From: Candidatus Latescibacterota bacterium
Lineage (GTDB): Bacteria > Latescibacterota > UBA2968
Length of the DNA stretch: 64,000 nucleotides
NCBI GenBank assembly: GCA_965207885.1
Contig: OZ242311.1
Coordinates: forward strand, 2,731,235 to 2,795,234
Reading direction: 5' to 3'
In this document: in pieces, positions 8,472 through 52,146 of the stretch
Position numbering within the stretch: the first letter of the stretch is position 1
Layout: each line of letters opens with the position of its first letter
Translations under genes and position numbers: made by a program
Notes under the pieces: generated by a model
Database searches by the model: none
Told to the model about the DNA's origin: nothing
The model's input: the letters and a program-made list of their open reading frames with translations, nothing else

Positions 8472-8489
8472 GGAAATAACCCTTCTTTC

Positions 8490-8535: not shown

Positions 8536-8639
8536 AAAAAAAAGAGTTGGATTTCAACAATTCTTAAAAGACAGGTACTTACGAAAGGCGATATATGTTA
8601 TTTGGGATTTTGCTCGAAAATCACCCTGAACAAATTCGC

Positions 8640-15750: not shown

Positions 15751-15820
15751 AAAAACCTCCCTACTTAATTGCACAACAATCAGAATGCAATCACGATACG
15801 AAAAAGTTGTCCATACCTCA

Positions 15821-15848
15821 TGATAATCAAACAAATATTGATAATCAA
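15821..15848. promoter_or_regulatory. two Fur-box-like TGATAATCAA sites in a divergent sulfatase/PhyH promoter region
   Basis: TGATAATCAA occurs at 15821-15830 and 15839-15848. Each matches the central TGATAATCA of the classical Fur consensus GATAATGATAATCATTATC. The second copy forms the palindrome TTGAT-A-ATCAA. Confidence 0.3.
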
Positions 15849-15956
15849 TATAGCCCACAAAAACAAAAAATGAAGAGTATTTGCCGTAGTTCAGAAATTA
15901 ACTTATTATGGGACATGGCAGAAAAGGCTTGTAAACCATCGAATGAGGAATACTCT

Positions 15957-18659: not shown

Positions 18660-18690
18660 TGTTTGCTCTCCTTTCATTTTGGCGCGGTGG

Positions 18691-23855: not shown

Positions 23856-26525
23856 CTACTTCCTGGTTGGGGGGGCTTCAGGATCTACTGTAGCGCCTGT
23901 TACAAATAATAAGGCATCTTTGGAAAGCTTTTTGCCGCCCACGTACATACCCCATCGAAAGGTACTGCGACCACTGGGTCTTTCCCAGTCGTGGCGTCCT
24001 ACAAACTCCCCATTGATGTAGCATTCAGATGTATGGCCGTTGTCGCGAATGCGGACATCAAAAGACTTGCCTTCCATGTTCTTTAATACTGTCTTAGAAG
24101 TTGCTCTGCGCGGCTGGAATACGACGTCACCATCAGCGGTCATAACCAACATTATAGACCAGTCTTCACCGCTGTTTTTCACCTGAAAGATGCCACACCC
24201 CTGCGCTTTCACAATCGTGTAGGTGCCAATCCATTCATGCCAGGTACCGCGGTTCCACCTCTTTTTGCTAAACGCCTCAATCCGGGCCGCATTGGCACGT
24301 GCATTGCGCACATTGTGCTCGCCATCAAAAAGGCGAAACACCTGTGTGTTTCCGTCCTCTTGATACCATCGCGACCATTTGTGAAAATCGCGTCGAGGAA
24401 TCAAACTGTTGCCCGGTGTGTGAATATTGATTCCACTTTCTATGGGGCGTAATGCATGGGGTCCCTTTTCTACCACCTTGTTATTGACGTCAATTATTGA
24501 ACCTGTTATTCCCGTAGAGGAGTTCGTACCGATCGGAATCTGGTTCTCTTCGAGAATGGACGACCAGGAAGGATCACTACCCTGCCTGGTGTAAAGGACC
24601 TGATCGGGGTCGTCTGTTGTAAAATCCAGGATCTTCTTTCGCGTCCCTTTGCTGATGGTGACAACCCCGCTGTTCCACTCAGCATTGAGAAAGGGGCTTT
24701 CAAAGACTTTCTTTGGCGCGTAGTCGATTGGCTTGCCATTGATTGAGGGTACGGCTTTGGCGCTGGTATCAAAGGTCAACTGATCACCATAGATGGTTTT
24801 GTAGCGCAGCACCGTCCCATCTATCTGAACTTCACAGGCTTTTACCTTTTTTTTGAAAGCGTCGAAACTCGTGACATCGCTCCTGGCCATGACTTCAATG
24901 ATCACCGGTGCGTATTCATCATTGGGGATCATGGTCGCGTTTTCGGGAACAAAGCGATCCGTTTCAAACTCGCCATCCATCCACTTGAAACCGCCTGTAG
25001 CCACGCGGATCGCCGCATAAGCACCTTTGGCCTCCACATAGACCACGCCATCCTCTTCCACTGGCGCGCTCAACCCGCTCTTCGACATCCAGATGATCAT
25101 CTCGGCACCGTCCTTATGGTGCTTGAGCTTCTGGGTAATCAAGCTGCCTTTGCTCTGCACGGACCACTGTGCATTCATGGCCACCCGGTTGTCTTTGGGG
25201 CGAACGATGGGAACAATACGCGCATCGTGTTCGCCGGCAAAGATCACGCCTTGCCAGCGGTTTTGCGCACTGATCGCAGCCCAATCCTTCAGAGGCCTCG
25301 CTTCCGTCATCGGCGTTCCCATGATGAAGGCAGGATCACAGTAGCTGTAGCGCAGAATACCCCCTCCATCGGTTCGCATCCTGGTCGGCACTTGTGTATC
25401 AGCAGTCTTCAAAGGGCGACCCGTTTTTCCCAGACCCTGGGGACGCTGCCGCACCTCGTAGCGTCCTCGTCCTGCCACGTCGATTGCGATATCGGCTACC
25501 ACGGCTGGTGGACGGTAGTCGCTGAGAGCCGCGTTCACATCATGACCATAAACAGCAGGCTGCTTGCCGATGCCAAAGTAGAACCAGGCCAGCGGCGCAT
25601 TGCCATGATCCCGATTTTGCTTAAGCCCTTTCCAGAAATAGATGCGCGACCGCCCACCACCTTGAACGCCGTCAATCTGTTCCTGCGCCCAATAGGCAAA
25701 ATAAAGATCGAGCAACAGCCCGGCTGACCGTCTCACCTGCGGGTCACCAAAGTCGTAGAAATTGTAGAACCCCTTGATCAATGTGCTGTTATAGTCGTCG
25801 CACATCATCTCGATGCACAGGCTTTTGCGCGCACGTTCACGACAGTAAACCACAAAATACGCATTCCAGGCCCGATAGTGTTCTGCCGCCGTAGCGCCGT
25901 CATCATACTTGAGATTCTTGTATTCGGGCCGATCTTTCGCGATTTTGGCAAATTGCCAGCAGACTGTAAAACTCATGGCATGATGATTCTCTGACAGGTA
26001 GATGTGCCAGGTCTTAGATTTTTCGTATTCCGCCTTATCGAGCCTGGAAACCTTCCTGACGTATTCCCATATCGGCTTGAGAGCGAGGGCTTCGGTCTTT
26101 TTGGTGATGCGATTACTACCGTTGGTGCCGTACATCTCAATCAGCCGCATGACGATCTCCGCATGCCAGTGAAAGCTGTCACGGTCATTGATGTCCAGGG
26201 GGTTGTCGAGATAATGCTGGGCATTTTCGGCAAGTGCGGCATTGGCTTCTTCCAGCATCTCGTTCAGATAGAGGCAGCGTGCGGCAAACCCCACCATGGA
26301 ATAGGAATAGGCCCGCACATAATTTCCTCGCCCTGGATCGAGTGGCTTCTGTTTTTTTGCCCGCACCAACGGCTTGCCAGATTCAGCGCGAAACATCGCA
26401 TCCACTCGTTGTTCAAAGCCAGCTACGACCGCTTCGGGGGTAAAATTCTTCTTCACTGATTCCGCTCCTTGTGTCTGCCCAGTTATAAGTATAACGACCA
26501 GCATTATACGGTTGATGATTCGCAT
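23856..26525 (-). CDS. secreted two-module protein: heparinase-II/III-like toroid region plus C-terminal jelly-roll (PL7/ConA-like); candidate polysaccharide lyase
   Basis: The ATG at 26525 has GGGAG upstream. Signal peptide MRIINRIMLVVILITGQTQGA. The SENHHAMS and LLDLYFAYWAQEQIDGVQGGGRSR blocks are shared with the 28233 gene. The C-terminal 230 aa show an R..E / Q / Y motif order (ARIEAF, IFQVKN, FRWGMYVG). Confidence 0.7.
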   Translation of the reverse strand: MRIINRIMLVVILITGQTQGAESVKKNFTPEAVVAGFEQRVDAMFRAESGKPLVRAKKQKPLDPGRGNYVRAYSYSMVGFAARCLYLNEMLEEANAALAENAQHYLDNPLDINDRDSFHWHAEIVMRLIEMYGTNGSNRITKKTEALALKPIWEYVRKVSRLDKAEYEKSKTWHIYLSENHHAMSFTVCWQFAKIAKDRPEYKNLKYDDGATAAEHYRAWNAYFVVYCRERARKSLCIEMMCDDYNSTLIKGFYNFYDFGDPQVRRSAGLLLDLYFAYWAQEQIDGVQGGGRSRIYFWKGLKQNRDHGNAPLAWFYFGIGKQPAVYGHDVNAALSDYRPPAVVADIAIDVAGRGRYEVRQRPQGLGKTGRPLKTADTQVPTRMRTDGGGILRYSYCDPAFIMGTPMTEARPLKDWAAISAQNRWQGVIFAGEHDARIVPIVRPKDNRVAMNAQWSVQSKGSLITQKLKHHKDGAEMIIWMSKSGLSAPVEEDGVVYVEAKGAYAAIRVATGGFKWMDGEFETDRFVPENATMIPNDEYAPVIIEVMARSDVTSFDAFKKKVKACEVQIDGTVLRYKTIYGDQLTFDTSAKAVPSINGKPIDYAPKKVFESPFLNAEWNSGVVTISKGTRKKILDFTTDDPDQVLYTRQGSDPSWSSILEENQIPIGTNSSTGITGSIIDVNNKVVEKGPHALRPIESGINIHTPGNSLIPRRDFHKWSRWYQEDGNTQVFRLFDGEHNVRNARANAARIEAFSKKRWNRGTWHEWIGTYTIVKAQGCGIFQVKNSGEDWSIMLVMTADGDVVFQPRRATSKTVLKNMEGKSFDVRIRDNGHTSECYINGEFVGRHDWERPSGRSTFRWGMYVGGKKLSKDALLFVTGATVDPEAPPTRK

Positions 26526-26567
26526 TGTGACTACTCCCAACGCTAAAGCAGTAGGGCTTCTTGGCGG

Positions 26568-27692
26568 TCAATCCGCCTGACGTTGTAGCCCCAACGTCAA
26601 TATGTTTATCGCAGCATTGTGGTCTCTGTCCGTCTTATAGCCACACGCCTTGCAATGATGCACACGCTGAGAAAGTGGTTTTTTCTCTCTATGTCCACAT
26701 GCTGAGCAATCTTGTGACGTGTGCTTAGGATCAACGGCTTTGAATCCAATACCAGCTTCTTCCGCTTTGTATTCGAGACAGTGCCGAAACAGTGACCACG
26801 CTACGTCTGCTATTGATTTAGCCAATCGTCTGTTCTTTTGCATCTCTTTAACGTCCAATTTCTCGACGGCTATGAATCCGTGACGATTGACCATTTTTCT
26901 TGATTCTTGATGAGCAAAGTTATGTCGTTTATTACGGATGCGCTCATGCACTTTGGCAATGACTTTACGACGCTTTTCTCTTGTGGGGTCGGTCTTGGGT
27001 CTTTTTTTCACCGCGTCCCATTTGCGCTGTGCTCTGGCAAGAGACTTTTCCTCTTTGCGAAAGAATCTCTGATTCTCTATTTTCTGTCCGTCACTGGTCA
27101 CAGCAAAGGAATTGAGACCCACGTCAATGCCAACAGCAGGGCCTGTGTCTGCTCTTTCAGGCGTATCGCCAATATCACAAGAGATAGAGACAGACCACTT
27201 GCCTGTTGCTGTGCGCGTGATTGTGCAGGATTTAGGCACATCTTCAAGCGGTCTATGTTGGACAATGCGAATACAACCTATTTTGCTCAATCGCAAGCCC
27301 TTGTCGTCTAATCGACATCCATTGGCAAACTGAGGATACGTGATAGAATCATAGCGATGCTCATTCTTGTATCTGGGAAATCCAGCTTTCTCGCCTGTCT
27401 TTGACTTCTGTTTGAGACGCCGAAAGAATCCTTTGAATGCCCAATCTACTCTCTGGCACACTTGCTGGAGGACTTGAGAGTGCACAAGAGAAAAAGGCTT
27501 GTATTGATTTTTAAGCATGGGCAAAGTCTTATTTTGCTCATATCGGGACAAACTTTGTTTGTTGTTCTTCCATGCTTGTATTCTGGCACAGAGGAGTTGA
27601 TTGTATAAAATGCGACATTCGTCTATTTGTGCCAGCAAGACTTTCTCTTGCTTGTTGGTGGGTCGCAATCTATATTTGAATGACTTAACCAT
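26568..27692 (-). CDS. tnpB: TnpB (IS605 OrfB) RNA-guided endonuclease
   Basis: MVKSFKYRLRPTNKQ start. RuvC D (GIDVGLNSFA), E (IAVEKLDVKEM), zinc finger CSACGH..CKACGY, and RuvC D (TDRDHNAAINI) are all intact. Confidence 0.9.
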   Translation of the reverse strand: MVKSFKYRLRPTNKQEKVLLAQIDECRILYNQLLCARIQAWKNNKQSLSRYEQNKTLPMLKNQYKPFSLVHSQVLQQVCQRVDWAFKGFFRRLKQKSKTGEKAGFPRYKNEHRYDSITYPQFANGCRLDDKGLRLSKIGCIRIVQHRPLEDVPKSCTITRTATGKWSVSISCDIGDTPERADTGPAVGIDVGLNSFAVTSDGQKIENQRFFRKEEKSLARAQRKWDAVKKRPKTDPTREKRRKVIAKVHERIRNKRHNFAHQESRKMVNRHGFIAVEKLDVKEMQKNRRLAKSIADVAWSLFRHCLEYKAEEAGIGFKAVDPKHTSQDCSACGHREKKPLSQRVHHCKACGYKTDRDHNAAINILTLGLQRQAD

Positions 27693-28232: not shown

Positions 28233-30332
28233 TTAGTATTCGTCCCTTGAATTGTTGTTAAAGTCGAGGTTGAGTTTGTAATCGCCTTTGCAAATTTCAA
28301 TCTGGCCGCTATCATAATTGGATTGGATATAAGGGCTGTCGAAAACTTTTGGGTGCTCATAATCGACATACTTTCCACCAACTGTAGGCACATCGCTTGT
28401 ATTGGCCGCATTAAATACCATTTCTGCCATTTCAGGCGCGGCACTCTTGTAAACAACAACAATGCCTGTTTCTCTTGTTACCACGGTTCTATAGAGTGTG
28501 AGTTCGCCCTGCAAAATCATACGCTTAAAATTTTCCAATGTTGGGTGATCTGCCTTGCGACCTGCTTCTATCAGAACGGGACTGTATCTGTTGGTCAGTT
28601 GCAAAATCGTCTGATCGTTATTGAATCTATAGCTGTCGTTTCTAAGAACCACGTTGCCCCGGTATCTATCGGTCCCTTTTGCCCAGGCTTTGGCATCGGC
28701 CTCTGCTTCCAAAAGAATAACCCGTATTGCCACATAGACATTTCTCTTCTCTGCAAATATCCATCCATCTGTTTCATCAATACGATCCCATCCGTTGCCT
28801 AAGAATAACCCGAATTCCCGATCATACCGATTGTCATTGGCTGGATACCAGTCTGGATTGGATTGTGCCCAACGTCTTCTTTGTTGGGTGATCAGCACTT
28901 GCTTCTGCTGGACGCTGTGATACACCAATTCCATATCGTAGATATTTTCACCTTCGCGTTCTCCTTCTGGCGTATCCAGTGCAATGGTTGCCAGACGGGT
29001 GTTGGGATCTTTGGTCACCAGACCTTGCCAGCGCCCGGCGGTTGATAGGTGGTTGTAAAGCGCATAAGGGTGATCCATCTGAGTACCCAGCACATAATCT
29101 GGCGTTACCCATGTGTATTTGACAAACCGCGATGGCGTATCTCCCATCACGGTGCGCTCCGTGCCCAATGGACGAGGGCTGGTAGGTTCTTCTTCTCCAA
29201 TGCCCCGAGAGAGATATGCAAATGACCCGAGCCCTTTTCGATCCAGAGCCAATTCCCATACGATTCTTGGCCAGGCATAGTCGCTTAAGAGTTGTTGCGG
29301 ATAGTTGAACGAAGTTTTGCCCTCACCACCCAGATAGAAAATGGCAAGATCCGACATAGAATCGTATCCACCAGCAGTCTTGTGGTGGCGCGTTTTGGGA
29401 CCACCTCGTAAACCTGCAATTTGTAGCTGTGCCCAATCGGCCCACATCAGATCTAAAAACATGCCAATTTTCTTTTTAAGTCCCTCATCACCACAGAAAT
29501 TGTAGAGCATAAGAATATAACTGATGGTGTACTTCATATAGGTAGGCGAACCATTTTCAAGAAAGAACCCCCGCTTTGCACGCTCAGTGAAATAGTCATT
29601 GAGATAGGGCAACCAGGCATCGTAATGATCGGCTGCGTTATAAGATTTTCCGTCCGCCCAATTTGCGCGCCCACCACCGTGTCGATCATTGCTGCCCTGC
29701 CCACAATAGCTCGACTCGCCGTATCCGATGCCATCTCCATAACCGAGGTCGGGATAAATGCGGTCAATATACTCGGGTTCATTGGCAAAAATACGCGCAC
29801 TTAAAAGATTACAGGCTTTTGTATTCAGGTCGTGATTCTCACTACCCGCGATCCACCAGGTGCTCTTTTTTGCGACAGAAATATCATTCTTGTACCTGGT
29901 TCGCGCCCATAGTAAAGCCAGCAAAATTCGCTCTGTTTCAGGCGTGAGTCGATTTGGCATCTGTGTACTTTTAGACCCAAACCAATTGTAGAATGTAATC
30001 AGCCTTGGATTGCGCCACAGGCTGTAGAGACTCTGCCCGGGTTGTATGCCTTTCTCCTCACATTCTGCGAGGTTTGCCAGTTCGGTTTGAAAATCTATTG
30101 TCAATTCTTTGTTGACTTCGTTTAGATTTTGGTTGAGCCACATCTGATCAAACATCTGACGGTCTTTGCCCGAAAAATCTGATTTTGCGCCTGCTTGAAA
30201 GGCTTGTTGAATGCGTTGGGGGCGCGTTTCCAATTCTTCTGCCATCAATTCGGTGATACGCTTGTCGATGGGTGAATCACCAAATTCCAGAAGGGATCGA
30301 AACCAACTATTTTTAGCATCTGCTTCGGGCAT
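28233..30332 (-). CDS. cytoplasmic heparinase-II/III-like toroid protein, paralog of the N-terminal 650 aa of the 23856 gene
   Basis: The blocks WWIAGSENHDLNTKA and FLDLMWADWAQLQIAGLRGGPKTR align with SENHHAMS and LLDLYFAYWAQEQIDGVQGGGRSR in the other gene. No signal peptide. GGAGGTG Shine-Dalgarno site. Confidence 0.7.
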   Translation of the reverse strand: MPEADAKNSWFRSLLEFGDSPIDKRITELMAEELETRPQRIQQAFQAGAKSDFSGKDRQMFDQMWLNQNLNEVNKELTIDFQTELANLAECEEKGIQPGQSLYSLWRNPRLITFYNWFGSKSTQMPNRLTPETERILLALLWARTRYKNDISVAKKSTWWIAGSENHDLNTKACNLLSARIFANEPEYIDRIYPDLGYGDGIGYGESSYCGQGSNDRHGGGRANWADGKSYNAADHYDAWLPYLNDYFTERAKRGFFLENGSPTYMKYTISYILMLYNFCGDEGLKKKIGMFLDLMWADWAQLQIAGLRGGPKTRHHKTAGGYDSMSDLAIFYLGGEGKTSFNYPQQLLSDYAWPRIVWELALDRKGLGSFAYLSRGIGEEEPTSPRPLGTERTVMGDTPSRFVKYTWVTPDYVLGTQMDHPYALYNHLSTAGRWQGLVTKDPNTRLATIALDTPEGEREGENIYDMELVYHSVQQKQVLITQQRRRWAQSNPDWYPANDNRYDREFGLFLGNGWDRIDETDGWIFAEKRNVYVAIRVILLEAEADAKAWAKGTDRYRGNVVLRNDSYRFNNDQTILQLTNRYSPVLIEAGRKADHPTLENFKRMILQGELTLYRTVVTRETGIVVVYKSAAPEMAEMVFNAANTSDVPTVGGKYVDYEHPKVFDSPYIQSNYDSGQIEICKGDYKLNLDFNNNSRDEY

Positions 30333-30381: not shown

Positions 30382-32616
30382 TCACGCTGAGCAGTCCCTG
30401 GCGTCTTTTGTACCGGTATCAAATGCCCATCCATCCCACATGTTGTCAGCGGTCGCTGGCACATCCTCTCGAAAGTTTCGGGTATCGACCCACCACTGAC
30501 GGTTTGGCGCTGGTCCATGCGACAGGTTAAAATATGGCGTCATACCATCTCGTTGATACTCACAAGGAACGACGAGACGCACGACAGGGCGATCGCGGTC
30601 AGCAGAGCGATTGACACCTCCCCCGTGAACAAGGCGAGGATGCCAGAAAACAACGTCCCCTGCTTTGCCGGAAAACTCCACTGGTGCAATCTCTCTCAGC
30701 ACATTGTCACGGGCTTTGCTATATGGCTCTGCGAGGTCGGGGTCAAGGGGACCGTAAACAGTAGTGTGATACAGGTGACTCATGTAATGTGACCCCGGCC
30801 AGATTGTAAAGCCACCACAGTGCGGAGGCACTGTATCTACAAAAACCATTGCAGATAATTGAGCCGCTGTATGGTCTCCATGGGGGGCTAAACGACTTTC
30901 TGAATTTGGTGGTTTTGGAAATATACAATAGACCCCTCGCACCCGGTTTGAACGTTTAACTGGGTCGCCGATAAACAATGAAACCAACTGCCGCATACGT
31001 GGGTGGTTGGCGATCTTATCGACAAAAAAAGGCTCTGTACCAATTTTACGCGAGCGCATCTTCCAGGTGCCGCGCGCAAATTGCCCTGCCTTTTCGGCAT
31101 CCGCCTCTGTCCACTGCCCGTGTGGCGCATCGAACCACGTTTGCACATCGTCGCGTTTGACAATCTCACGCGGCACATTTTCCCAAACATAATCCACGAT
31201 CCGGTCAAACGTCTCCTTCTCTTGCAGAAATCCGCGTTTCACAAGAAAACCATTCTCTTTGAAAAACGCGACTTCGGCTTCACTGAGGGTTGGGTCTCCG
31301 TTCAAAAATTCTGGATCGGGCAAGAGGGCGGGGTCTCCGTTCGCAAATTCTGGATCGACCAATACCTGGGGATCACGGATGACGACGTCTTCGGAAATTC
31401 TGAGCGCGTGTAAACCGCTTCCTTCAAATGGCGGCACCAAAAGATTGTAGATTTGTTGCGCTTTCTCTTTCTGATTCATGCATGCCAATTCGGCTTTCAC
31501 AGGCTCAAAATCCATATTTAAATAAAGGTAAGCGGCGAGCCTCATACATCTAAATGCAGGCTCCCCAGAAAAGGGTTGAATCTGTGGAAGCGTCCACTCG
31601 CGATCGCCCATCCAGTAGGGATAAAGCCAATCAAAGGCGCGTCGCATGGATCGCCCATCGGTAGATTCAAAATTGGCGAGATCAATACCCCACTGTCGGC
31701 CAATCTCAGCGAGTTCTAAAAGAAGCTCTAAATTCATACTCGCGTATCCAAGTGCCTTTGTGCGTGCGAGTTCCAGAGGCTGTTGACCATCTGGCTCAAT
31801 CTGAGCAGCAATCCTTCTTTCTCCCACCCCTTTTAATATCATTCGCGCAAGATCTGATTGCCCCACAAAAAGCGCGAATGTCACAACCTGAATATCATAA
31901 GAACTCGAATGGTTATTGCCATGACGCGCTTCGTCAACCCCATAAGGATGCTTCAACATCCATTCGAGAAACGCGTGAAACCAGGCCTGCAAATCTTCCA
32001 TATCTTTTTGGGACCAGTTCTTAGAGTCGCGCAAAAAACTGACCGCAGGGAGCATCTCGCGTGCAAATGCAGCCGTCTCAATAAGCCCGATACCTCGCCC
32101 TTCGCATATCCCGGGTATGGCCTGCCCAAACAAAAGGTTTGGGTTCATCCTGGTTTCGGGATTCATAAACCATGTTCGCAACAACAATGCAGCCTGAGCA
32201 GCGTAGTCTTCTCGATGTGTAAAACCATACGCTAACCCCAGCGTTTTCACCGTTGAAATGAATTTTGCCAACAAAGGGCGGTCCGTTTTTTCAACCTCGG
32301 GATTGACCTCGCCATCTCGTCGGATATAAGGCAAACCGTCAGGCTTATCGGGGTCTGGCCACCAGTAAGGTCCAACACTCATGTAATCGTGTTTGTCACC
32401 ACTGGCAGGCAAGATCGGTTTGTTCACAATGGTCAGCGGTTCCTGCTTCAAAGCGGCATCCGCTTTCACAAGCAGGGCTTTAAGGGCTTGCCCACACGGG
32501 TTATCTTCCCGTTTGCTCAACGAGCGCGCCCGCTTGATATAATCGGGATCTACTGTAAATATAGGTTCAGCAGGTGAAAACGCCTTGAGCAGATCAGCTT
32601 CTTTGTCCGGATACAT
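30382..32616 (-). CDS. fusion protein: PL5-like alginate-lyase-superfamily domain (aa 1-400) plus PhyH Fe(II)/2OG dioxygenase domain (aa 445-744)
   Basis: N-terminal motifs: ASGDKHDYMSVGPYWWPDPDKPDGLPYIRRDGEVNPE and GNNHSSSYD. Linker: DPEFANGDPALLPDPEFLNGDP. C-terminal motifs: EVAFFKENGFLVKRGFL, HGDH, GGFTIWPGSHYMSH and GDVVFWHPRLVHGGGVN. It is a single uninterrupted ORF with an AGGAG Shine-Dalgarno site. Confidence 0.85.
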   Translation of the reverse strand: MYPDKEADLLKAFSPAEPIFTVDPDYIKRARSLSKREDNPCGQALKALLVKADAALKQEPLTIVNKPILPASGDKHDYMSVGPYWWPDPDKPDGLPYIRRDGEVNPEVEKTDRPLLAKFISTVKTLGLAYGFTHREDYAAQAALLLRTWFMNPETRMNPNLLFGQAIPGICEGRGIGLIETAAFAREMLPAVSFLRDSKNWSQKDMEDLQAWFHAFLEWMLKHPYGVDEARHGNNHSSSYDIQVVTFALFVGQSDLARMILKGVGERRIAAQIEPDGQQPLELARTKALGYASMNLELLLELAEIGRQWGIDLANFESTDGRSMRRAFDWLYPYWMGDREWTLPQIQPFSGEPAFRCMRLAAYLYLNMDFEPVKAELACMNQKEKAQQIYNLLVPPFEGSGLHALRISEDVVIRDPQVLVDPEFANGDPALLPDPEFLNGDPTLSEAEVAFFKENGFLVKRGFLQEKETFDRIVDYVWENVPREIVKRDDVQTWFDAPHGQWTEADAEKAGQFARGTWKMRSRKIGTEPFFVDKIANHPRMRQLVSLFIGDPVKRSNRVRGVYCIFPKPPNSESRLAPHGDHTAAQLSAMVFVDTVPPHCGGFTIWPGSHYMSHLYHTTVYGPLDPDLAEPYSKARDNVLREIAPVEFSGKAGDVVFWHPRLVHGGGVNRSADRDRPVVRLVVPCEYQRDGMTPYFNLSHGPAPNRQWWVDTRNFREDVPATADNMWDGWAFDTGTKDARDCSA
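31292..31355 (-). repeat. 39-nt tandem duplication encoding the inter-domain linker
   Basis: GGGTCTCCGTTCAAAAATTCTGGATC at 31292-31317 and GGGTCTCCGTTCGCAAATTCTGGATC at 31331-31356, with a 39-nt period. They encode DPEF(L/A)NGDP twice. Confidence 0.65.
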
Positions 32617-32640: not shown

Positions 32641-34572
32641 TTATTGTAAATCGATTTCCAGTTGCAAATAATCGTACATAACGCCAAAGTGAGGGTAGTT
32701 CTGTCGTTGCCCGCGGTGTTGTTTCCGTGGGAGGAGGTCGAGCGTCAACACATTCTCTCCTGTGCGCAACAGCGACGCATCAAACGCGATAAAGTGCTCG
32801 CTGAAGCGCCCGTAGATGCCACTGCGGGGAAGCGCACTGTCGTTCTCCAAACCGGTAATCTTATCCAGAGGTTTGCCATTGAGGCCGATAGCGATTCCCC
32901 CATCGCGATTTACCGACGCCAGAGCGATTGTGAGGGTCGCGCGCCCGGACATTGGCTCATCGCATTGAAATCGAATCTTCCAGGTAGGTAGTCGCCAGTT
33001 GCCTTCTCCAGTCCGGTCAGCAGGCTGTATGCGGGGTTGCCATCCGCCTTTTTCTTCCCAAATTGCCATATGTGCATAATTCCAGTCGCTTCGCTCTTTG
33101 CTCTTTCCGACCGCGAAATCGACATCCTCGGGAAAATCCTTCTGGTAATTGAACCATAGCCCCCAGTGGCGATGGTCATCTCCGCGTCGAAATTCAGCAG
33201 CAGTTCGGTCTGGTTTTCCGACACGCCAGAGCAACTTGCCGAAAGAACGGGGTGACCACTGCAGACTGCCGAGTTTGACTTCGCCGGTTGCGTCGATCGT
33301 GACGTCATCTTTTCTAAACTCACCAATCATGTCAGGGGCAAATGCATAAAGCGTATATCTTCCTTTTCGGACAGCCGGTATTGCATAGGAACCATCAGCC
33401 GCCATCCTGGCGCGGTAGATGTAGTTCTCTGCGCCTTGCTGCTGCCAGTCCAGCCCTCGATATTCCTGGGGCTGCGCCAGTACGACCCATCCATTGCTGT
33501 GGTGTGTTAGACCCGTATCTTTGAATCTTCCCGTAACCACAGCCCTGTCGATCGGGTACTCCGGATGTTCCAGCCAGCTGTAGGGCCAGCGCTTTCGATG
33601 TTTTTCACCCTCGCGCTTTGCATCATACCACAAATGCCGGGCATCTTCACCTTTGTTCATATAAACAAATACCGGCCCGAAGACCTTCTCCCATTTACCG
33701 CTGACGTAATCCCCTCTGCTGCCGTAGTGGTGAGAATACAGCAGCTTCAGGATGATCGGCCCCCGATCAGTCGCGTGGCTGGTATTGTGTTGTTTTGTCG
33801 GACCGCCGCAGAGGTATTCATTGCTCGGCGTGACCATCCACACGCCCTGCTTTCCATTGTGCAAACCGTGTACAAGAGCCTCCTGAGTTGGAGATGACCA
33901 GTTATACTTTGTATCCACTTCTCCCGATTGGAGCGCATGTGTGGCATCCATCACCATGCCCTTTGCGCTGGATATTGCCTTGCTATCCGGAATCACACCA
34001 GAGAGCTTGTCATTGACCCTGATATTCACCATCGAATCGTTTAGGCGCATCCCAAAACGAAGCTGTGTCAGCACGGCGTCGCCCGTATCCCCGGGTTTGC
34101 TAGCTACAACATAATAATAGAACCCCGAATCACCCGCTCTCAGGACATAATGGAGCTCCATCTTGAACGGGAAACCTGCGGGTTGTTTGGGGGTGAATGA
34201 AATATCGACCATTTCCGGGTTATTGACGTGGATGTTGAACTCAGGGCTTTGGTCGCGCAAAAACTTTGCCTTCACGTTCGACTCTTTGCCCGCCATATAG
34301 TTTGTTTCCGAATCATCGACATAACTGGCCAGGATGGTGAAATATCCGAACTGTTTGGGAGATAGGAGAGAGTCCCCCTGATATTCCAACGAGATAATCC
34401 GCCCCGTAGATTTTTGGATCGCCATCGAGACGGAACTATTTTTAAGGATGATTCTATTGCCAGATTCAACAAGCATTGAAACCTCTGCGAAAACCGGCGT
34501 GCTGATCATACACTGGATGGATACGAGCAGAATGCACGCCGCGCATCTGCCAAATCCAATTTTTTTGAACAT
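32641..34572 (-). CDS. secreted rhamnogalacturonan lyase, PL4 family
   Basis: Signal peptide MFKKIGFGRCAACILLVSIQCMISTPVFA from the ATG at 34572. Hallmark blocks: LWRVGKPDRTAAEFRRGDD..WGLWFNY, DWNYAHM, LTIALASV and PRSGIYGRF..LLRTGENVLTLDL. Confidence 0.8.
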   Translation of the reverse strand: MFKKIGFGRCAACILLVSIQCMISTPVFAEVSMLVESGNRIILKNSSVSMAIQKSTGRIISLEYQGDSLLSPKQFGYFTILASYVDDSETNYMAGKESNVKAKFLRDQSPEFNIHVNNPEMVDISFTPKQPAGFPFKMELHYVLRAGDSGFYYYVVASKPGDTGDAVLTQLRFGMRLNDSMVNIRVNDKLSGVIPDSKAISSAKGMVMDATHALQSGEVDTKYNWSSPTQEALVHGLHNGKQGVWMVTPSNEYLCGGPTKQHNTSHATDRGPIILKLLYSHHYGSRGDYVSGKWEKVFGPVFVYMNKGEDARHLWYDAKREGEKHRKRWPYSWLEHPEYPIDRAVVTGRFKDTGLTHHSNGWVVLAQPQEYRGLDWQQQGAENYIYRARMAADGSYAIPAVRKGRYTLYAFAPDMIGEFRKDDVTIDATGEVKLGSLQWSPRSFGKLLWRVGKPDRTAAEFRRGDDHRHWGLWFNYQKDFPEDVDFAVGKSKERSDWNYAHMAIWEEKGGWQPRIQPADRTGEGNWRLPTWKIRFQCDEPMSGRATLTIALASVNRDGGIAIGLNGKPLDKITGLENDSALPRSGIYGRFSEHFIAFDASLLRTGENVLTLDLLPRKQHRGQRQNYPHFGVMYDYLQLEIDLQ

Positions 34573-34610
34573 TTTGTGTTTTGCTATGAGGCGTTGCACG
34601 ATGAAATGTC

Positions 34611-34640
34611 TTGATTGAGGTTCATTTTTGTATGTACTAT
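34611..34640 (+). promoter_or_regulatory. candidate promoter for the plus-strand sulfatase
   Basis: TTGATT, 18-nt spacer, TACTAT, about 50 nt upstream of the ATG at 34693. The match is weak. Confidence 0.25.
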
Positions 34641-34692
34641 ACGCAGTAGTTTCTACACTTACACTCAACTCGAAACAATGGGAAGAATATAT

Positions 34693-36102
34693 ATGGCACA
34701 AGTACGACCACACATACTCATTCTCACGGCGGACCAGCTACGGGCGGATTCTATGGGCTGCGCCGGTCATCCGCGGGTCAAAACGCCGGTCATCGACTCG
34801 CTTGCCAACGACGGCATGCGGTTCAGCAATTGCCACACCGTGTCGCCGGTCTGCCAGCCGTCGCGCGTGTCGTTCATCACTGGCACCTATCCTCACAACC
34901 ACGGCATCTGGTACAACCGCGGCGAACTGCCGATCAACTACCCGACGCTGTTCTCCCAATTGCGGGACGCTGGCTACCACACGGCAACCGTCGGCAAGTC
35001 GCACCTCTGGAGCCACAGAAAGGTGTCTCATTTGCGCGAAGGCGAGCCGTATATGCAAGCGCTCGGCTTTGACGTCATCGACGAACTCGGAGGACCGCGG
35101 GGGAGTCTCAACTCGGACTCGTACTTCACCGACTACCTGCGCGAGAAGGATCTGTTCGAGCTCTTCGTCAGCGATACACGCGAACGGGTTCGCGACCCAA
35201 AGCTCGTCAAACCAGCGGTGTTTGAGGAGGACGACCACATGGACGGGTACGTGGGCAGGCGTTCGGTCGAGTTCGTCGATTCTGCGCCCGGGGACCGTCC
35301 GACCTGTCTGTCCGTCAATTTCCCCGGGCCACATGACCCGTGGGATGCGCCGGGGAAGTACGCCACCATGTACGATCCGGCCGATTCGCCGCCCGCCATC
35401 GGCGTGCCGCCGCGACCCGCCACGCTCCCCGACGAAGTCGCCCAGAAGGAGGACTTCAAGACGGAGCCGGGTCTGACCGCTGAAATCGCCGCCGCGATCC
35501 GGGCAAATTACGATGGCAAGATCACATTCGTCGATCACTGGTGCGGTGAGATCCTTGCGGCGTATGAACGGCGCGGCTGGCTCGATGATCTCTGTGTCGT
35601 GTTCTGGTCCGATCACGGCGAAATGACCGGCGATCACGGCAGGGTGTTCAAACGCACCTTTCACGAATCTGCATTGCGGGTCCCCCTGATCCTGCGCTGG
35701 CCCGGGCGGATACCGTCGGGTACTGTCTGCGACGCACTGGTGGAAACTATCGATGTCGGCCCTGCCTTGCTGGAAGCCCTGGGGCTCGACCAGTTGCAGA
35801 TGTCCCTTGGGCAGTCGCTGGGGCATTTGTTCGCGGAGCCGACCGCGCACCACCGCACCGAGGTATTGTCAGAGATTTTCTACGGTGGTTCGCGCAATAC
35901 GATGGTGAAAACCGACCGCTACAAATACGCCATGGATCAGCACGGCAGGGGGTACATGCTGTACGATATGCAGCAGGACCCGGATGAGCAGCAAAATCTG
36001 ATCGGCGATCCCGAGCATCGGGATACGGAGAACGAGATGCGGGACACGCTGCTTCGCCGCCTCGCTGCCAGCGCGTTTGTCATGGACAGCGTGAACCTTT
36101 GA
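34693..36102 (+). CDS. Cys-type sulfatase, no signal peptide, GC-rich
   Basis: MAQVRPHILILTADQLRAD, PVCQPSRVSFITGTYP and WSDHGEMTGDHG motifs. Shadow ORFs of 282 and 371 aa in other frames indicate high G+C. Confidence 0.9.
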   Translation: MAQVRPHILILTADQLRADSMGCAGHPRVKTPVIDSLANDGMRFSNCHTVSPVCQPSRVSFITGTYPHNHGIWYNRGELPINYPTLFSQLRDAGYHTATVGKSHLWSHRKVSHLREGEPYMQALGFDVIDELGGPRGSLNSDSYFTDYLREKDLFELFVSDTRERVRDPKLVKPAVFEEDDHMDGYVGRRSVEFVDSAPGDRPTCLSVNFPGPHDPWDAPGKYATMYDPADSPPAIGVPPRPATLPDEVAQKEDFKTEPGLTAEIAAAIRANYDGKITFVDHWCGEILAAYERRGWLDDLCVVFWSDHGEMTGDHGRVFKRTFHESALRVPLILRWPGRIPSGTVCDALVETIDVGPALLEALGLDQLQMSLGQSLGHLFAEPTAHHRTEVLSEIFYGGSRNTMVKTDRYKYAMDQHGRGYMLYDMQQDPDEQQNLIGDPEHRDTENEMRDTLLRRLAASAFVMDSVNL

Positions 36103-36126: not shown

Positions 36127-37053
36127 CTAATCAGCAACGATTCTCTGATCAGAAGCACGCGTTTCGCTATTTTCATCCCCAAAAGCCGCGTTGTCTTCGT
36201 CGTAATATCTGTTGTATCGTATGTTATTCCCCCCGCTTACCCACACGGCGCGAAACAGCGTTTGCCGTTTTGGCGGCATTGTAGCAATCACTTCTTTGGG
36301 TACGCTGCGACCTCCCCATCTGCTGTTTACGGCATTGTAGAGGTGAAATAAGCTCAACCGCTGGCGATTCTCGTTTGTCCACCGAGTACCGGTATGACAT
36401 AGTGCTTCTGTGAAGATCATCGCAGAACCTGCAGGACATGTATATGTATCCCAAATTTCGCTCTCGCGGTTGCTCAATGAATCAGGTCGGCTAAATGCCG
36501 CCTTGTGGCTACCGGAAGCCAGCAGGGTGCCCCCGTCACCCGGCCCGATCTCATTCAATTCCCAAACCACGCGTGTCAATCCTGAATGCACCTTGCCTGG
36601 AAGCATCTGGTAGATGTGTGAATTTCCAATGAGATTGAAATAGCCGCTGCCCCCGTGAGGCTTGAATCGATCGTATCCCACCTCGCGATAGTCAGTGCGT
36701 GTGCGCTCAAATGTAAACCCATAACAGTCCTCGGTTGCCAACTGCTGACTTGCAACAATCTCATTCAAAATCCCGACAATCACGGGATGATCCAGCAGTG
36801 CTTGAGAAGGTCCTCCCACCGGATTCCGTTCTTCTGGCGGAAGCGACTCAGGCTCCTTAACGAGCTTCATCTGATGTTCGTGAATCTCTGCCAACTGATC
36901 GCCTTCAACCAATCCCGGCAGGCAAATCCAGCCCTTCATATCAAACAGGTACTTGTGCTCTTCGGTCATGGGAATGACCGGGAGCCCATCGGCATTGGTT
37001 GTCGGTAACATTTTGCCCACATCAGGCTCCAGGTTTGGACGTCCTCGATTCAT
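36127..37053 (-). CDS. PhyH family Fe(II)/2OG dioxygenase
   Basis: AAGGAG lies 8 nt upstream of the ATG at 37053. MTEEHKYLFDMKGWICLPG, GGTLLASGSHKAAF and GSAMIFTEALCHTGTRW motifs. Confidence 0.85.
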   Translation of the reverse strand: MNRGRPNLEPDVGKMLPTTNADGLPVIPMTEEHKYLFDMKGWICLPGLVEGDQLAEIHEHQMKLVKEPESLPPEERNPVGGPSQALLDHPVIVGILNEIVASQQLATEDCYGFTFERTRTDYREVGYDRFKPHGGSGYFNLIGNSHIYQMLPGKVHSGLTRVVWELNEIGPGDGGTLLASGSHKAAFSRPDSLSNRESEIWDTYTCPAGSAMIFTEALCHTGTRWTNENRQRLSLFHLYNAVNSRWGGRSVPKEVIATMPPKRQTLFRAVWVSGGNNIRYNRYYDEDNAAFGDENSETRASDQRIVAD

Positions 37054-37081: not shown

Positions 37082-37909
37082 TTATTTCCCTTTTGACGTA
37101 TCTAACCAGCTGAGGCACACCCGTTGTCGAGTGGCGATTTCCTTTTTGTGGGTGTAGTGCGCCGTTTCGAGCAATTCGAGTGTTTCGGGCGCCAGCCGCT
37201 CTTTGACCGCCTCAGGAATGGGACGGCCGGGCTGGCGGTGGTGTGGGCGGTAGCGCAACGTTAACACCCGGCGTTGGCGATCGACGGGTTTCCAGGGCAG
37301 GACCCCGTGGGTCAGGCATTCGGGTATAATGACCACATCCCCAGCTGAGGGCGTGATATTGATGACTCCCAACGGGACTTCTCCTTCGATGCGACCCTGG
37401 GAAAATAGCTGCGGTGGCCGGTCAAACTGGCTTTTGTGCGAACCCGGAAGCACGAGGAGCCCGCCATCACCTGGATGTACATCGTCCAAGTAGGGAAACA
37501 CCACAAAGTCGTCGCAATAGATACGGCCCTGGTGTATCTCGTAACGGGCGCTCTCAAAGCCGTAGTCGTCGCGGGCGCAGTGCAGCGGACTCGCCTCGGT
37601 GTGTCCGTCGGGGTCGTCGACCATGAGGGTACCGCTGGCGAGCATAGGTTTGCCGTTTGTCAGCTCCAGCACGATGGGCCAGACTGCGGGCAGAAAGACC
37701 AGCTTTTCCAGCGCCCGGTCAAAGGCGAAGCCGTGAGCAAAGCCCTTGAGATTTTCTGATTGTCCGAAATGCGGCGGCAGGTCTTCCGGTGCGCTGTCGA
37801 TGTAGCGCCTGGCAGCCTCCGAAGCCGCATCCAGTTCCTCCGGAGTCAGGACGTTCTTCAGGTGCAGAAAACCGCATAGATCAAAAAGATAGCGTTGTTC
37901 TTCGGTCAT
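37082..37909 (-). CDS. PhyH family Fe(II)/2OG dioxygenase
   Basis: MTEEQRYLFDLCGFLHLKNVLTPEELD, GGLLVLPGSHKSQF and GDVVIIPECLTHGVLPW motifs. Confidence 0.85.
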   Translation of the reverse strand: MTEEQRYLFDLCGFLHLKNVLTPEELDAASEAARRYIDSAPEDLPPHFGQSENLKGFAHGFAFDRALEKLVFLPAVWPIVLELTNGKPMLASGTLMVDDPDGHTEASPLHCARDDYGFESARYEIHQGRIYCDDFVVFPYLDDVHPGDGGLLVLPGSHKSQFDRPPQLFSQGRIEGEVPLGVINITPSAGDVVIIPECLTHGVLPWKPVDRQRRVLTLRYRPHHRQPGRPIPEAVKERLAPETLELLETAHYTHKKEIATRQRVCLSWLDTSKGK

Positions 37910-40302: not shown

Positions 40303-41763
40303 TCACGGTTTTTGCACGACAAATTCCGGCCGTGGAATCATGCGTTCTGGATTCCGTTCGTAACCTCGTTTCCACAACTCCTCCACAAGCCTTCCACTTT
40401 TAGCCAGTTCTTGGCGAAGTGCCTGCTGGTCTGCCTTTGCCCTCTGATCAATCGCTTCCGGGCAGCACACCTGGTATAGTATTCGCCGAAGCCGAGCCAG
40501 TTTCTGAGACGCATCGGGACGCTCCGCAAGATCTTGCATCTCCAAAGGATCCTCTGCAAGGTCAAACAACATCGGTCTTTCCCCAACGCACGCTACATAT
40601 TTATCTGAACCCGATCTAAGAGCAAATGCGCTTCCCGGAAGGCCCGGCCCATGGAATTCACTGATAGCGAATTCGGGAAGCGCCGCACCCGGCTCGCCCC
40701 TCAAGGATCCCAGCAAGGATGTCCCCCGCATGTGTGTTGGCGAAGGCAACTCCAGGGCTTCCGAGAATGTCTGGAAAAGATCGAGATGTGAAACAGGTGC
40801 AGGCTCGGACCCTCCTGACTCTATGCCGGGTCCAGCCACGATCATGGGTACGCGAATTGAATCCTCATACATCGATCCCATTCCGGAATTGCGATGTGCC
40901 CCCATGCTGCCACCGTGATCCGAAGCATAGGCGACCAGGGTCGAATCCCAGAGATTCTCGGTGTCTATGGCTTTGAGCACGCGCCCCACGTTGCGATCTG
41001 CCATCTCACAGATGCCGTGGTAGCCTACCAGACCACGGCGCAACTCTTCGGATGTGCAAAGATCGCTGCACGTGTAACGAACAAAATCCCTGTGGAAGGG
41101 GTGCAGTCGAGAAACGGGTTCCGAATAGCGCTCGTCCAGGTCTTCGGTTCGCACCAGCGGATCGTAGTAATCCCATAGCTCCTGCGGCGGATTCCATCCG
41201 GGATGGGGCTGTTTGATATTCACTATCAGGACCCAGGGGCGATCTTGTGGGCGTTCATTCATCAGCCACTGTACCGCTTCTTCCACGACCTGCGCGTCGT
41301 GCTGGTGTTCCCCACGCCTACTTGCAGGACCCGCTTCCCGCAATCGATGCAGGTGATGGTATCGGGGTTGCACGCGGCCCTCTTCGAACAGCGTGTGTAC
41401 GTCCAGACTCTCCCGTGCCTTGGCCAGGCGCATATCTTCCACTCCAGCATCACTGCCCGGTTTGTAATCGAGCTTGCCAATGGTCGTAAGCACGACACCA
41501 TTTTCTGCAAAGTAATGCCCCCAGCCTCTGGGCACTCCTGAATAGGGAAACGCATTGTCCCAGGTGGAGATTTCGTGAACATACCGTCCCGCCATCATCG
41601 CTCCCCGAGAAGGCGCGCACAGAGGACTTGGACAATAGGCACTGTCGAATCTCTTTCCTCGTCTGGCGAGCGCATCGATGTGAGGCGTACGGGTAATGGA
41701 ACTACCGTAACAACCGGAAAACTCCGGGTTGTGTCGATCGGTCATGATATAAACGACATTCAT
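40303..41763 (-). CDS. Cys-type sulfatase, no signal peptide
   Basis: The ATG at 41763 (MNVVYIMTDRHN) has GAGGTG 7 nt upstream. PLCAPSRGAMMAGRY and ASDHGGSMGAH motifs. The track start at 41967 overlaps the upstream gene. Confidence 0.85.
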   Translation of the reverse strand: MNVVYIMTDRHNPEFSGCYGSSITRTPHIDALARRGKRFDSAYCPSPLCAPSRGAMMAGRYVHEISTWDNAFPYSGVPRGWGHYFAENGVVLTTIGKLDYKPGSDAGVEDMRLAKARESLDVHTLFEEGRVQPRYHHLHRLREAGPASRRGEHQHDAQVVEEAVQWLMNERPQDRPWVLIVNIKQPHPGWNPPQELWDYYDPLVRTEDLDERYSEPVSRLHPFHRDFVRYTCSDLCTSEELRRGLVGYHGICEMADRNVGRVLKAIDTENLWDSTLVAYASDHGGSMGAHRNSGMGSMYEDSIRVPMIVAGPGIESGGSEPAPVSHLDLFQTFSEALELPSPTHMRGTSLLGSLRGEPGAALPEFAISEFHGPGLPGSAFALRSGSDKYVACVGERPMLFDLAEDPLEMQDLAERPDASQKLARLRRILYQVCCPEAIDQRAKADQQALRQELAKSGRLVEELWKRGYERNPERMIPRPEFVVQKP

Positions 41764-41800
41764 AGCAGTCACCTCGGTGCGCGTTGTCAATGTCGGCATC

Positions 41801-42619
41801 TTAAGCCGTTGGAACATATCCCAGCTGGTCGTTATGTGCCACAGCTTCGGGGAAGGTCTCGTGAAGGTGGTCGAGAACCATCTCAATCTTACACCTGCAC
41901 AAAGAGCTGGGATAGGGCATCTCGCCGGTACGCCGGAAAAATGCCCCGTTCTTTTCGTGAAAATCACCCCGCCGGTCCATGAACTGCCCCCAGTGTCCCA
42001 TCGTGTATCGCATCTCTGTTCTTCTCTCAGCGCTCTGAATCCAGGCCTCGGGAAACAGCATTTGAAACCGCGGTGCCGAATTCATCCAGCTGCCGCATCG
42101 AACCACTTTTACTTCCGGCCGATGTACTTTCGAATCTCTGAGCAGCCTGATTAGCGATGCCGCAAACTGTATGTGCATATCGCTGAGGGGAGATTTTGGC
42201 TGGTAAACATTGGCAATATGAAGGCTCAACGAGTCCTCGTGCTTGTAGTCATGATTCCAACATTCGTGTGAACGATCGCCAGGTCTGGGCTGTTCGTTAC
42301 CCAACGTGCGAATGCGCGCTTCCATAAGTGGCCAGAGGATCGCAAGTCCCCTGATCTCCACGGATTCACTATCATTACCATACTTGTCGAAGATTTCTCC
42401 CAATTTCCCTACAATGACGTTCCATTCGGGATCTTCGTCTCCCGCTGCCGGATGGTGGTTGCCGTTGTAGAGTGAGGTATTCCGGTACAGATTGACTCGC
42501 ACGTTGACGGTATCTTCCAGATCGCCGAGATTTTCCTGCAGCCGTTTGTTCGCGTACCAAAGGCTCAACCGGGTGAATTCCCGAGCATAATGCACGCGAA
42601 TCGGATCCAGATCGGACAT
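41801..42619 (-). CDS. hypothetical protein (possibly GNAT-C-like/acyltransferase-associated fold)
   Basis: The ATG at 42619 (MSDLDPIRVHY) has GGGGG upstream. The ..VVRCGSWMNSAPRFQMLFPEAW.. segment recalls C-terminal domains of some acyltransferase-like proteins. The call is weak. Confidence 0.55.
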   Translation of the reverse strand: MSDLDPIRVHYAREFTRLSLWYANKRLQENLGDLEDTVNVRVNLYRNTSLYNGNHHPAAGDEDPEWNVIVGKLGEIFDKYGNDSESVEIRGLAILWPLMEARIRTLGNEQPRPGDRSHECWNHDYKHEDSLSLHIANVYQPKSPLSDMHIQFAASLIRLLRDSKVHRPEVKVVRCGSWMNSAPRFQMLFPEAWIQSAERRTEMRYTMGHWGQFMDRRGDFHEKNGAFFRRTGEMPYPSSLCRCKIEMVLDHLHETFPEAVAHNDQLGYVPTA

Positions 42620-42647
42620 TGATTCTACCCCCGTTGTTCGTATTGCG

Positions 42648-46114: not shown

Positions 46115-46172
46115 GGTATTCTCCTAAAGTAATCTTTACCCTGGTTGAGATTTTTGGAATCAAAAAAGGTTC

Positions 46173-47552: not shown

Positions 47553-47627
47553 CTCCTATCTCCTATTTTCCAATGCCAGAATTCGACCCGAGAGCCAGTC
47601 GGTCTGTTTTATACGCAGAGACTCAAG

Positions 47628-49866: not shown

Positions 49867-49955
49867 AGGTTCTCCTCAACAGCCGTTCGACGAATCACGG
49901 TGCCAGAACAAGTTCATGTTCAAGATTCGGTGGATGGGATTCATTTGCAATGTGA

Positions 49956-50984: not shown

Positions 50985-51073
50985 TGTCCAGTCTCGGTAG
51001 TATAAAATTTAATTCAGAAAAGCACAAGCGAATCCAAATCTCTTTGGGATTCCCGGGATTCTTTGGTTGCGGG

Positions 51074-52108: not shown

Positions 52109-52146
52109 GGCAAATATCTCAATTTTTTCTGAAATTCGAACGTTCA

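Follow-up and report, generated by a model that had tools for sequence, protein, structure and literature searches.

A conserved protein of Latescibacterota that joins a PL38-type lyase domain to a PhyH-type oxygenase domain

Does a single bacterial protein combine a polysaccharide lyase with an Fe(II)/2-oxoglutarate (2OG) dioxygenase, and, if so, on what kind of substrate would the two halves act? The question is raised by an open reading frame (ORF) in a 64,000-nt stretch of contig OZ242311.1 (positions 2,731,235 to 2,795,234; hereafter the window), which comes from a marine, probably sponge-associated Latescibacterota bacterium. An initial annotation of these letters had described a single 744-codon frame in which a PL5-like alginate-lyase domain is fused to a PhyH domain through a duplicated linker. 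We found that a single ORF genuinely unites an alginate-lyase-superfamily domain with a complete PhyH domain, and that this union is conserved and under purifying selection in both halves, while the family of the lyase and the nature of the "linker" had to be revised. Both domains belong to known families, and it is their pairing that is uncharacterised. Weighing the evidence set out below, we lean, with little better than even confidence, towards a cytoplasmic bifunctional enzyme that acts on imported uronate-containing oligosaccharides, which are probably sulfated.

Reality, conservation and age of the fused gene

The ORF is uninterrupted from its ATG to its stop at the positions first annotated, with the correction that it lies on the minus strand, and the motifs that had been quoted from it (SGDKHDYMSVGPYWWPDP...GLPYIRRDGEVNP, GNNHSSSYD, FFKENGFLV, PHGDH, GGFTIWPGSH and WHPRLVHGGG) are all found in its translation. 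The start codon is well supported, because the N-terminus MYPD(K/E)EA is common to all homologues. Pfam recognizes the Alginate_lyase domain (PF05426) at residues 63-341 (E = 1.3e-85; 287.6 bits against a cutoff of 22.2) and the PhyH domain (PF05721) at residues 452-675 (E = 1.2e-16; 62.1 bits against a cutoff of 22), with the latter match spanning positions 1-210 of the 213 in the profile; an NCBIfam scan of the protein matched zero models. A search of 5.8 billion proteins recovered 36 full-length protein clusters, 67-98% identical, which display both Pfam domains on many independent contigs and go by the database names "hypothetical protein" or "alginate lyase family protein". In a scan of one genome per GTDB species, the intact fusion is present in 20 species-level genomes (19 labelled Latescibacterota/Latescibacteria and one Gemmatimonadetes), and half of these records (10 of the 20) are titled as complete chromosomes, of 5.6-8.4 Mb. 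For pairs with unsaturated dS, the ratio of nonsynonymous to synonymous substitution rates (dN/dS) is 0.08-0.12 in the lyase half and 0.09-0.135 in the PhyH core, with a more relaxed 0.16-0.37 in the arm that joins the halves.

Three relatives (L001, L087 and L088) are annotated as split genes, which could speak for an artefact, be it a chimeric assembly, an unrecognized frameshift or two wrongly merged genes. However, each of them has a different lesion at a different position. L001 (GCA_009840435.1), otherwise 98% identical, has about 17-20 substitutions within about 60 nt at 7370-7440 (equivalent to ~31180-31250 of the window), which create a TAG without any indel; an error in the consensus, recombination confined to this patch, or decay could be the cause. 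In L087, a single nucleotide is inserted into a T-run at nt 1322 of the gene (L087:4322), and L088 (3001-5210) has a 1-nt insertion at nt 1586 of the gene, in a contig whose name gives a coverage of 2.47x. The split relatives hence look like products of sporadic errors or decay rather than a conserved split. Because the intact ORF is held by 20 independent assemblies, closed chromosomes among them, because the three lesions are unrelated and because conservation and selection (dN/dS about 0.1 in both halves) run unbroken through the junction, we reject a chimera or frameshift as vanishingly improbable; the same assemblies answer negatively the concern, raised in the initial annotation, of an assembly join between the domains.

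The architecture has a narrow distribution. In a profile search of 1.84 billion 50%-identity representatives, of which the best 150 matches were considered, one representative is matched end to end (1521 bits) and the next match (562 bits) covers the lyase half only; among these 150, the architecture appears confined to a single 50%-identity cluster. The matches with two separate stretches in this set are all lyase-lyase tandems and were rejected as a second lyase-PhyH architecture. Likewise, a number of long "PhyH" ORFs (435-1005 aa) from high-GC genomes were rejected as fusions, their excess length being Arg-rich upstream read-through. A neighbour-joining tree, built without support values, divides the fused PhyH sequences into two groups and interleaves a few stand-alone PhyH proteins with one of them. 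The metagenome-assembled genome (MAG) JBLHJX01 holds two paralogous fusions (L018 and L020; 67% and 80% identical to the window protein), which fall one in each group, and since a single MAG thus has members of both, the fusion is old enough to have duplicated. On these sequence comparisons, the fusion is old, and fission may also have happened. As a separate observation, an Opitutales MAG chromosome (OZ252288), from an assembly belonging to Verrucomicrobiota, has a 163-aa ORF (L067:9986-10477) whose product matches the final ~165 residues of the fusion at 85-88% identity; horizontal transfer may have left it there as a remnant, or it may stem from contamination.

The two halves and their junction

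The solved structures closest to the N-terminal half are PL38-type. The sole PL5-type structure matched in a phmmer search of the PDB, the poly(beta-D-mannuronate) lyase 7WXJ, which we take to be PL5, aligns partially (residues 191-337) with E = 0.0044, whereas BACOVA_01668 of Bacteroides ovatus (3NFV/3NNB) aligns over residues 32-390 with E = 2.7e-90. BoPL38 from the same species (E = 2e-64; about 1e-64 across its structures) is matched by 8BDQ, described in the PDB as a PL38 alginate lyase (E = 4e-64; residues 52-354), and by the 9FH*/9FI* series. Foldseek comparisons of the AlphaFold 2 (AF2) model of the full-length protein concur, with template modelling (TM) scores, normalized to the target, of 0.83 for 3NNB/3NFV and 0.75-0.78 for BoPL38, and with no PL5 structure among the top structural matches. 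PL5 alginate lyases of the A1-III/AlgL type share with the fusion the PF05426 domain, the (alpha/alpha)-barrel superfold and the NNH...R...Y arrangement, but their similarity to it is marginal. The PL38 family includes alginate and beta-1,4-glucuronan lyases, and PL5 and PL38 form separate clusters in network analysis (PMC11890756). Because matches to PL38-type structures have E-values of 1e-64 to 1e-90, as against 0.0044 for PL5, we reject the original PL5-like assignment and consider this half, by homology, a PL38-type lyase for alginate- or glucuronan-type uronates.

For BoPL38, a preprint assigns Y298 and H243 the part of catalytic bases, with E236 and Y91 in support (10.1101/2024.12.11.627697). 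A HMMER alignment places Y298, H243, E236, Y91 and R292 of that enzyme at Y291, H236, E229, Y84 and R285 of the fusion. In 21 fusions these five positions either do not vary or are conserved to 90% or more, and we infer that Y84, E229, N234/N235, H236, R285 and Y291 constitute the catalytic and supporting residues of this half. The most conserved lyase motif (SGDKHDYMSVGPYWWPDP...RRDGEVNPE; residues 65-105; 32302-32424 of the window) includes Y84. The loop that it forms is poorly modelled in the full-length AF2 model, with a predicted local distance difference test (pLDDT) score below 50; it may act as a mobile lid, or the low score may stem from the choice of alignment.

The lyase-like half might instead not be a lyase here, and serve as a C5-epimerase or as a module that binds and positions uronate oligosaccharides, so that the oxygenase does the only productive chemistry. 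This would agree with the secondary epimerase activity reported for BoPL38 (10.1101/2024.12.11.627697), with the presence of Gly290 at the position of its His297, with lesions of the lyase motifs next to an intact PhyH half in P0037 and P0002, and with the greater divergence of the nearest stand-alone lyases (at most 51% identical, against 71-74% for the nearest stand-alone PhyH proteins). Nevertheless, the catalytic Tyr, His, Arg and Glu are kept in almost all fusions, a dN/dS of about 0.1 is what one usually sees in enzymes, and the closest structure, 3NFV, also has Gly at the His297 position. We therefore hold this alternative to be quite improbable.

By a crude hydropathy measure, a hydrophobic N-terminus is found in 0 of 35 fusions as opposed to 37 of 44 single-domain and 30 of 36 tandem-lyase relatives, which suggests that the fusion protein, unlike its secreted lyase relatives, has no signal peptide. 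Because the fusions are without such a segment, the protein is probably cytoplasmic, as would be expected of a 2OG-dependent enzyme. It differs in these respects from BoPL38 (B. ovatus CP926; 8BDQ, 9FHT-9FI6) and the uncharacterised BACOVA_01668, which share its lyase fold and the counterparts of its catalytic residues but are secreted single-domain proteins of about 380-400 aa; the fusion has an additional 350-aa oxygenase. Stand-alone versions of both halves exist (PL38-like lyases of ~410-450 aa and PhyH proteins of ~330 aa). Outside the window, many secreted proteins of 720-1800 aa (P0040-P0075, P0241-P0253) feature two PL38-like domains, either in tandem or spaced.

From its residues, the C-terminal half appears to be a catalytically complete Fe(II)/2OG oxygenase of the PhyH superfamily. 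The iron triad H579-x-D581...H664 does not vary among 21 fusions and 66 subfamily members, and neither does R680, located 16 residues after H664, which by its position is a putative 2OG-binding residue. The AF2 model of this half (pLDDT 91; predicted TM score, pTM, 0.90) predicts a double-stranded beta-helix fold, and Foldseek matches it with probability 1.0 to KanJ, the proline hydroxylase H11, SnoK, PhyH and EctD. Profile and fold searches likewise recover SnoK (E = 4e-8) and SnoN (E = 3e-7), along with human PhyH, EctD, KanJ, H11 and GriE, with profile E-values for these characterised relatives ranging from 4e-8 to 3e-3. All share the fold, the HxD...H triad and, putatively, the 2OG-binding Arg with the fusion, but the fused subfamily is set apart by an N-terminal arm of its own and by a conserved, Trp-rich extension at the C-terminus. 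Since the matches to solved relatives are remote and nearly tied at the top (16-20% identity; TM 0.4-0.6), neither orthology nor substrate can be inferred from them, and we rejected orthology with phytanoyl-CoA 2-hydroxylase, EctD, KanJ or SnoK. KanJ and SnoK/SnoN act on sugar moieties, and sugars are accordingly within the chemical reach of the superfamily.

The halves are joined end to end. The C-termini of stand-alone lyases project to residue ~398 of the fusion (median) and the N-termini of stand-alone PhyH proteins to residue ~395 (median), which on sequence grounds places a seamless junction, without a linker, at residues ~395-398. Stand-alone PhyH homologues hold a single copy of the motif DP(D/E)FxNGxPTLSEAE in their own N-terminal arm. 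Because they carry this motif, the segment first taken for a duplicated DPEF.NGDP linker is the native PhyH arm; the linker is thus rejected and the duplication stands, as a 39-nt repeat in the DNA that puts DPEF at residues 421 and 434. The repeat was missed by TRF, with its two copies, and found by a direct-repeat search. Its 13-aa product is present only in the subgroup of 736-744 aa and absent from the 93%-identical L088, and sequence comparison indicates that it is lineage-specific and polymorphic among close relatives. The arm is confidently modelled at residues 407-426 (pLDDT 90-95 in the half-model), with low pLDDT in the inserted copy. For the whole protein, the AF2 model (pLDDT 87; pTM 0.87) has an ordered junction and suggests a rigid two-domain body. 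Foldseek of this full-length model found no PDB chain spanning both halves.

What the fused protein may do

In the bifunctional enzyme that we favour, the N-terminal half would, by homology, act on imported oligosaccharides, with Tyr291 and His236 bringing about cleavage by beta-elimination at 4-linked uronate residues (of glucuronan/alginate type or glycosaminoglycan-like). The oxygenase half, predicted to pack rigidly against the lyase, would then, going by the chemistry of its family, oxidize and most likely hydroxylate the substrate or product of the lyase. The coupling of the two activities, the uronate class of the substrate and the cytoplasmic location are all points that we infer. Three candidate reactions can be named for the oxygenase: hydroxylation of an unsaturated or 4-deoxy uronate product, which would fit neighbouring genes for UxuA-like, aldo-keto reductase (AKR), lactonase, MR_MLE and short-chain dehydrogenase/reductase (SDR) enzymes; oxidative removal of a sulfate or methyl group from a neighbouring residue, which would fit the pairs of sulfatase and PhyH genes; and a KanJ-like oxidation of an amino sugar. 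A bolder proposal, which we offer tentatively as possible though doubtful, is that the PhyH half represents a new carbohydrate-active oxygenase partnering a polysaccharide lyase, and, for example, hydroxylates the unsaturated or 4-deoxy uronate that an exo-acting PL38 half would set free, or else strips a blocking sulfate or methyl group.

Gene neighbourhoods bear on these possibilities in both directions. In favour of a glycan substrate, the fusion gene itself is located in the sulfatase-rich island described below, and divergent fusion loci contain PL8, further PhyH genes, a sulfate permease, AKR and UxuA-like genes. Stand-alone orthologues of the PhyH half were examined at 57 loci, 7 of Latescibacterota type and 50 proteobacterial. 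The former have sulfatase neighbours in 3 of 7 cases (0-1 of 50 in the proteobacterial loci, depending on the query) and UxuA-like dehydratase neighbours also in 3 of 7 (0 of 50), as well as AKR and lactonase genes, with some PhyH genes lying between lactonase and UxuA-like genes. Among the closest stand-alone PhyH relatives, the genes for P0122 and P0141 are directly behind a co-directional gene for a 476-aa sulfatase. By contrast, the proteobacterial loci feature acyl-CoA thioesterase (24/50), SDR (18/50), luciferase-like monooxygenase (14/50) and CoA-transferase III (12/50) neighbours, each of them absent from the seven Latescibacterota-type loci. The initial annotation had drawn from the fusion a Rosetta-stone link between PhyH and glycan processing. 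Its components indeed also occur separately, and the Latescibacterota loci with sulfatase and sugar-acid genes agree with it; the proteobacterial contexts and the linkage data given next do not, and the link is supported within Latescibacterota only.

Several results weigh against a coupled glycan-active enzyme. At the 57 stand-alone PhyH loci, a stretch of 10 kb around the gene never includes a PL38-like one, and there is no conserved operon around the fusion beyond relatives that are ~90% identical, with no neighbour kept in divergent loci. The proteobacterial orthologues of the PhyH half (45-56% identical) reside in acyl-CoA, luciferase-like and SDR contexts, and because of these acyl-CoA-type contexts the ancestral substrate of the subfamily may have been a small molecule and not a glycan. 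The ~750-aa PF05426 protein encoded near stand-alone PhyH genes (L085) is just 18% identical to the lyase half of the fusion. In the window, five of the seven PhyH-type domains adjoin a sulfatase, which is not above the shuffled expectation (P = 0.21). The signal-peptide call relies on the crude hydropathy measure and the rigid packing on the pTM only.

Much of this would also suit a neutral or opportunistic fusion, in which two adjacent cytoplasmic genes were merged by loss of a stop codon and both halves remained functional on unrelated substrates without mechanistic meaning: uronate oligomers for the lyase half and, for the PhyH half, some small metabolite other than a glycan, as in Proteobacteria. 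Stop-codon loss would give just such a seamless end-to-end junction; the lack of PL38-like neighbours, the acyl-CoA-type contexts and the highly fluid local gene order agree with it, and the interleaving of stand-alone and fused PhyH sequences in the neighbour-joining tree suggests that the fused state may be labile. Yet the fusion has been retained over 67-98% identity, in 20 species and in two paralogous lineages within one MAG, purifying selection is equal on both halves, the predicted arrangement is rigid, and the stand-alone relatives from Latescibacterota occur in sulfatase and sugar-acid contexts. A merger of this kind thus strikes us as unlikely, and a bifunctional enzyme for uronate oligosaccharides as the better account.

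The stand-alone PhyH proteins P0140 and P0141 are encoded ~3 kb upstream of the ~750-aa PF05426 protein, which, given its divergence, was rejected as a split orthologue of the lyase half. The contigs of these two (L083-L085) display a recurrent cassette of a sulfatase, PhyH, DUF362, sometimes an MR_MLE-type enzyme and the ~750-aa protein; the latter has a weak PF05426 match together with a 'Phosphonate-bd' match, and GH28-like and GH84-like genes are nearby.

The sulfated-glycan island and the wider PhyH question

The curated map of the window has 42 genes (features in Table 1). Its 12 sulfatases include seven whose sulfatase domain begins so early (residues 2-14) that a signal peptide would not fit in front of it, which suggests cytoplasmic desulfation of imported oligosaccharides. 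Directly upstream of the fusion, the stop of a PL4-like gene lies 24 nt from the fusion ATG in the same direction, an adjacency kept only in the closest relatives. The downstream gene for a 699-aa protein is found near the fusion only in relatives that are at least ~93% identical. Gene order is shuffled even among ~95%-identical relatives, and in L011 an ISL3 transposase flanks the fusion. PDB searches gave no meaningful sequence match for the 699-aa and 894-aa ORFs, and the PL4-like neighbour also had none. The large ORFs without a Pfam match are candidates for unclassified glycan-active proteins. Other genes of the island encode a pectate-lyase-2/C5-epimerase-like protein, BNR_4 and BNR_2 proteins, several esterases, CE15-like ones among them, two DUF3604 proteins, a DegT aminotransferase and dehydrogenases. 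Part of these form a block at 42648-52932, with the two DUF3604 paralogues, the DegT-type aminotransferase, a sulfatase, a CE15-like esterase, a GFO/IDH/MocA oxidoreductase and an M55 peptidase-family protein, which hints at amino-sugar processing within the island.

All six stand-alone PhyH ORFs that had been annotated are present, five by Pfam and one (36127-37053) by BLAST to two others, and one of them (17805-18707) is overlapped over 17 nt by a sulfatase gene (18691-20304). They differ strongly from one another, and their identity to the PhyH domain of the fusion is only 18-27%, a level at which the extension of a uronate substrate class to them, as first suggested, is weak.

Table 1. Coordinates of the fusion, its parts and other features of the window
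Feature	Position	Strand	Remarks
Complete fusion ORF	30382..32616	minus	744 aa; stop codon 30382-30384; full-length in 20 Latescibacterota genomes
PL38-type (alpha/alpha)-barrel uronate lyase half (by homology), aa 1-~395	31432..32616	minus	Pfam, PDB, Foldseek; apparently without signal peptide
N-terminal arm of PhyH half, aa ~396-445	31282..31431	minus	Native to stand-alone PhyH homologues; motif DP(E/D)FxNGxPTLSEAE
Tandem 39-nt (13-aa) duplication of DPEFxNGDPxLxx	31285..31362	minus	2 copies, 85% identical
PhyH-type Fe(II)/2OG dioxygenase core and conserved C-terminal extension, aa ~446-744	30385..31281	minus	Pfam, AF2, Foldseek
Upstream PL4-like (rhamnogalacturonan-lyase-type) gene	32641..34713	minus	PF14683, PF14686, PF09284, PF06045; signal-peptide-like N-terminus
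Downstream 699-aa protein	28233..30332	minus	Co-directional, 49 nt from fusion; no Pfam match
Large co-directional ORFs without Pfam match	28233-30332, 23856-26540, 10454-11923, 55688-57148, 41801-42679		699, 894, 489, 486, 292 aa
Sulfatase genes	within 168-22314, 34615-36102, 40303-41967, 46173-47552		Pfam map
Six stand-alone PhyH-like ORFs	7404-8537, 11943-12689, 15807-16724, 17805-18707, 36127-37053, 37082-37909	plus for 15807-16724	Pfam 5/6
TnpB/IS605-type gene	26568-27692		Inside glycan island
rve-type integrase	61963-62814		Near island end

Polysaccharide lyases are not known as fusion partners of 2OG oxygenases. Our look through the literature turned up no account of such a protein, in agreement with the initial annotation, which knew of no characterised enzyme with this architecture; nothing relevant was found that joins PhyH with sulfatases, polysaccharide utilisation or alginate lyase, and nothing useful on 3NFV. 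Oxidative steps in the degradation of marine glycans are few, and those that became known, such as lytic polysaccharide monooxygenases and P450 demethylases, each opened new biochemistry. Among the oxidative helpers in marine glycan catabolism are the P450 6-O-methyl-galactose demethylase of porphyran loci and the 2OG-dependent alkylsulfatase AtsK. These share with the fusion only the concept of an oxygenase that removes or modifies a group blocking glycan cleavage; they belong to other families (P450 and TauD-type) and are not fused to a lyase.

PhyH domains are unexplainedly abundant in sulfatase-rich marine and sponge symbionts (PMC3909097; PMC7081726). In poribacterial sponge symbionts, PF05721 was reported to outnumber every other Pfam family, without a role being assigned to it, and use of phosphonates (PhnY-like) has been proposed for a few of its members, with no fusion to a carbohydrate-active enzyme reported (Kamke et al. 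2014, PMC3909097). The locus described here, with 7 PhyH-type domains among 42 genes, likewise has many divergent PF05721 members in a marine, sulfatase-rich genome, although its host belongs to Latescibacterota and not to Poribacteria. If the PhyH half is indeed a carbohydrate-active oxygenase, the PhyH expansions of sulfatase-rich marine and sponge symbionts (Latescibacterota/PAUC34f and Poribacteria) would be the oxidative arm of sulfated-glycan catabolism. A conserved single protein that is selected in both of its halves, seamlessly joined and located in a sulfatase island is a concrete handle for testing this glycan hypothesis of PhyH oxygenases. In a claim kept narrow and limited to Latescibacterota, it offers a first opportunity to test whether these abundant oxygenases have a part in breaking down sulfated sugars.

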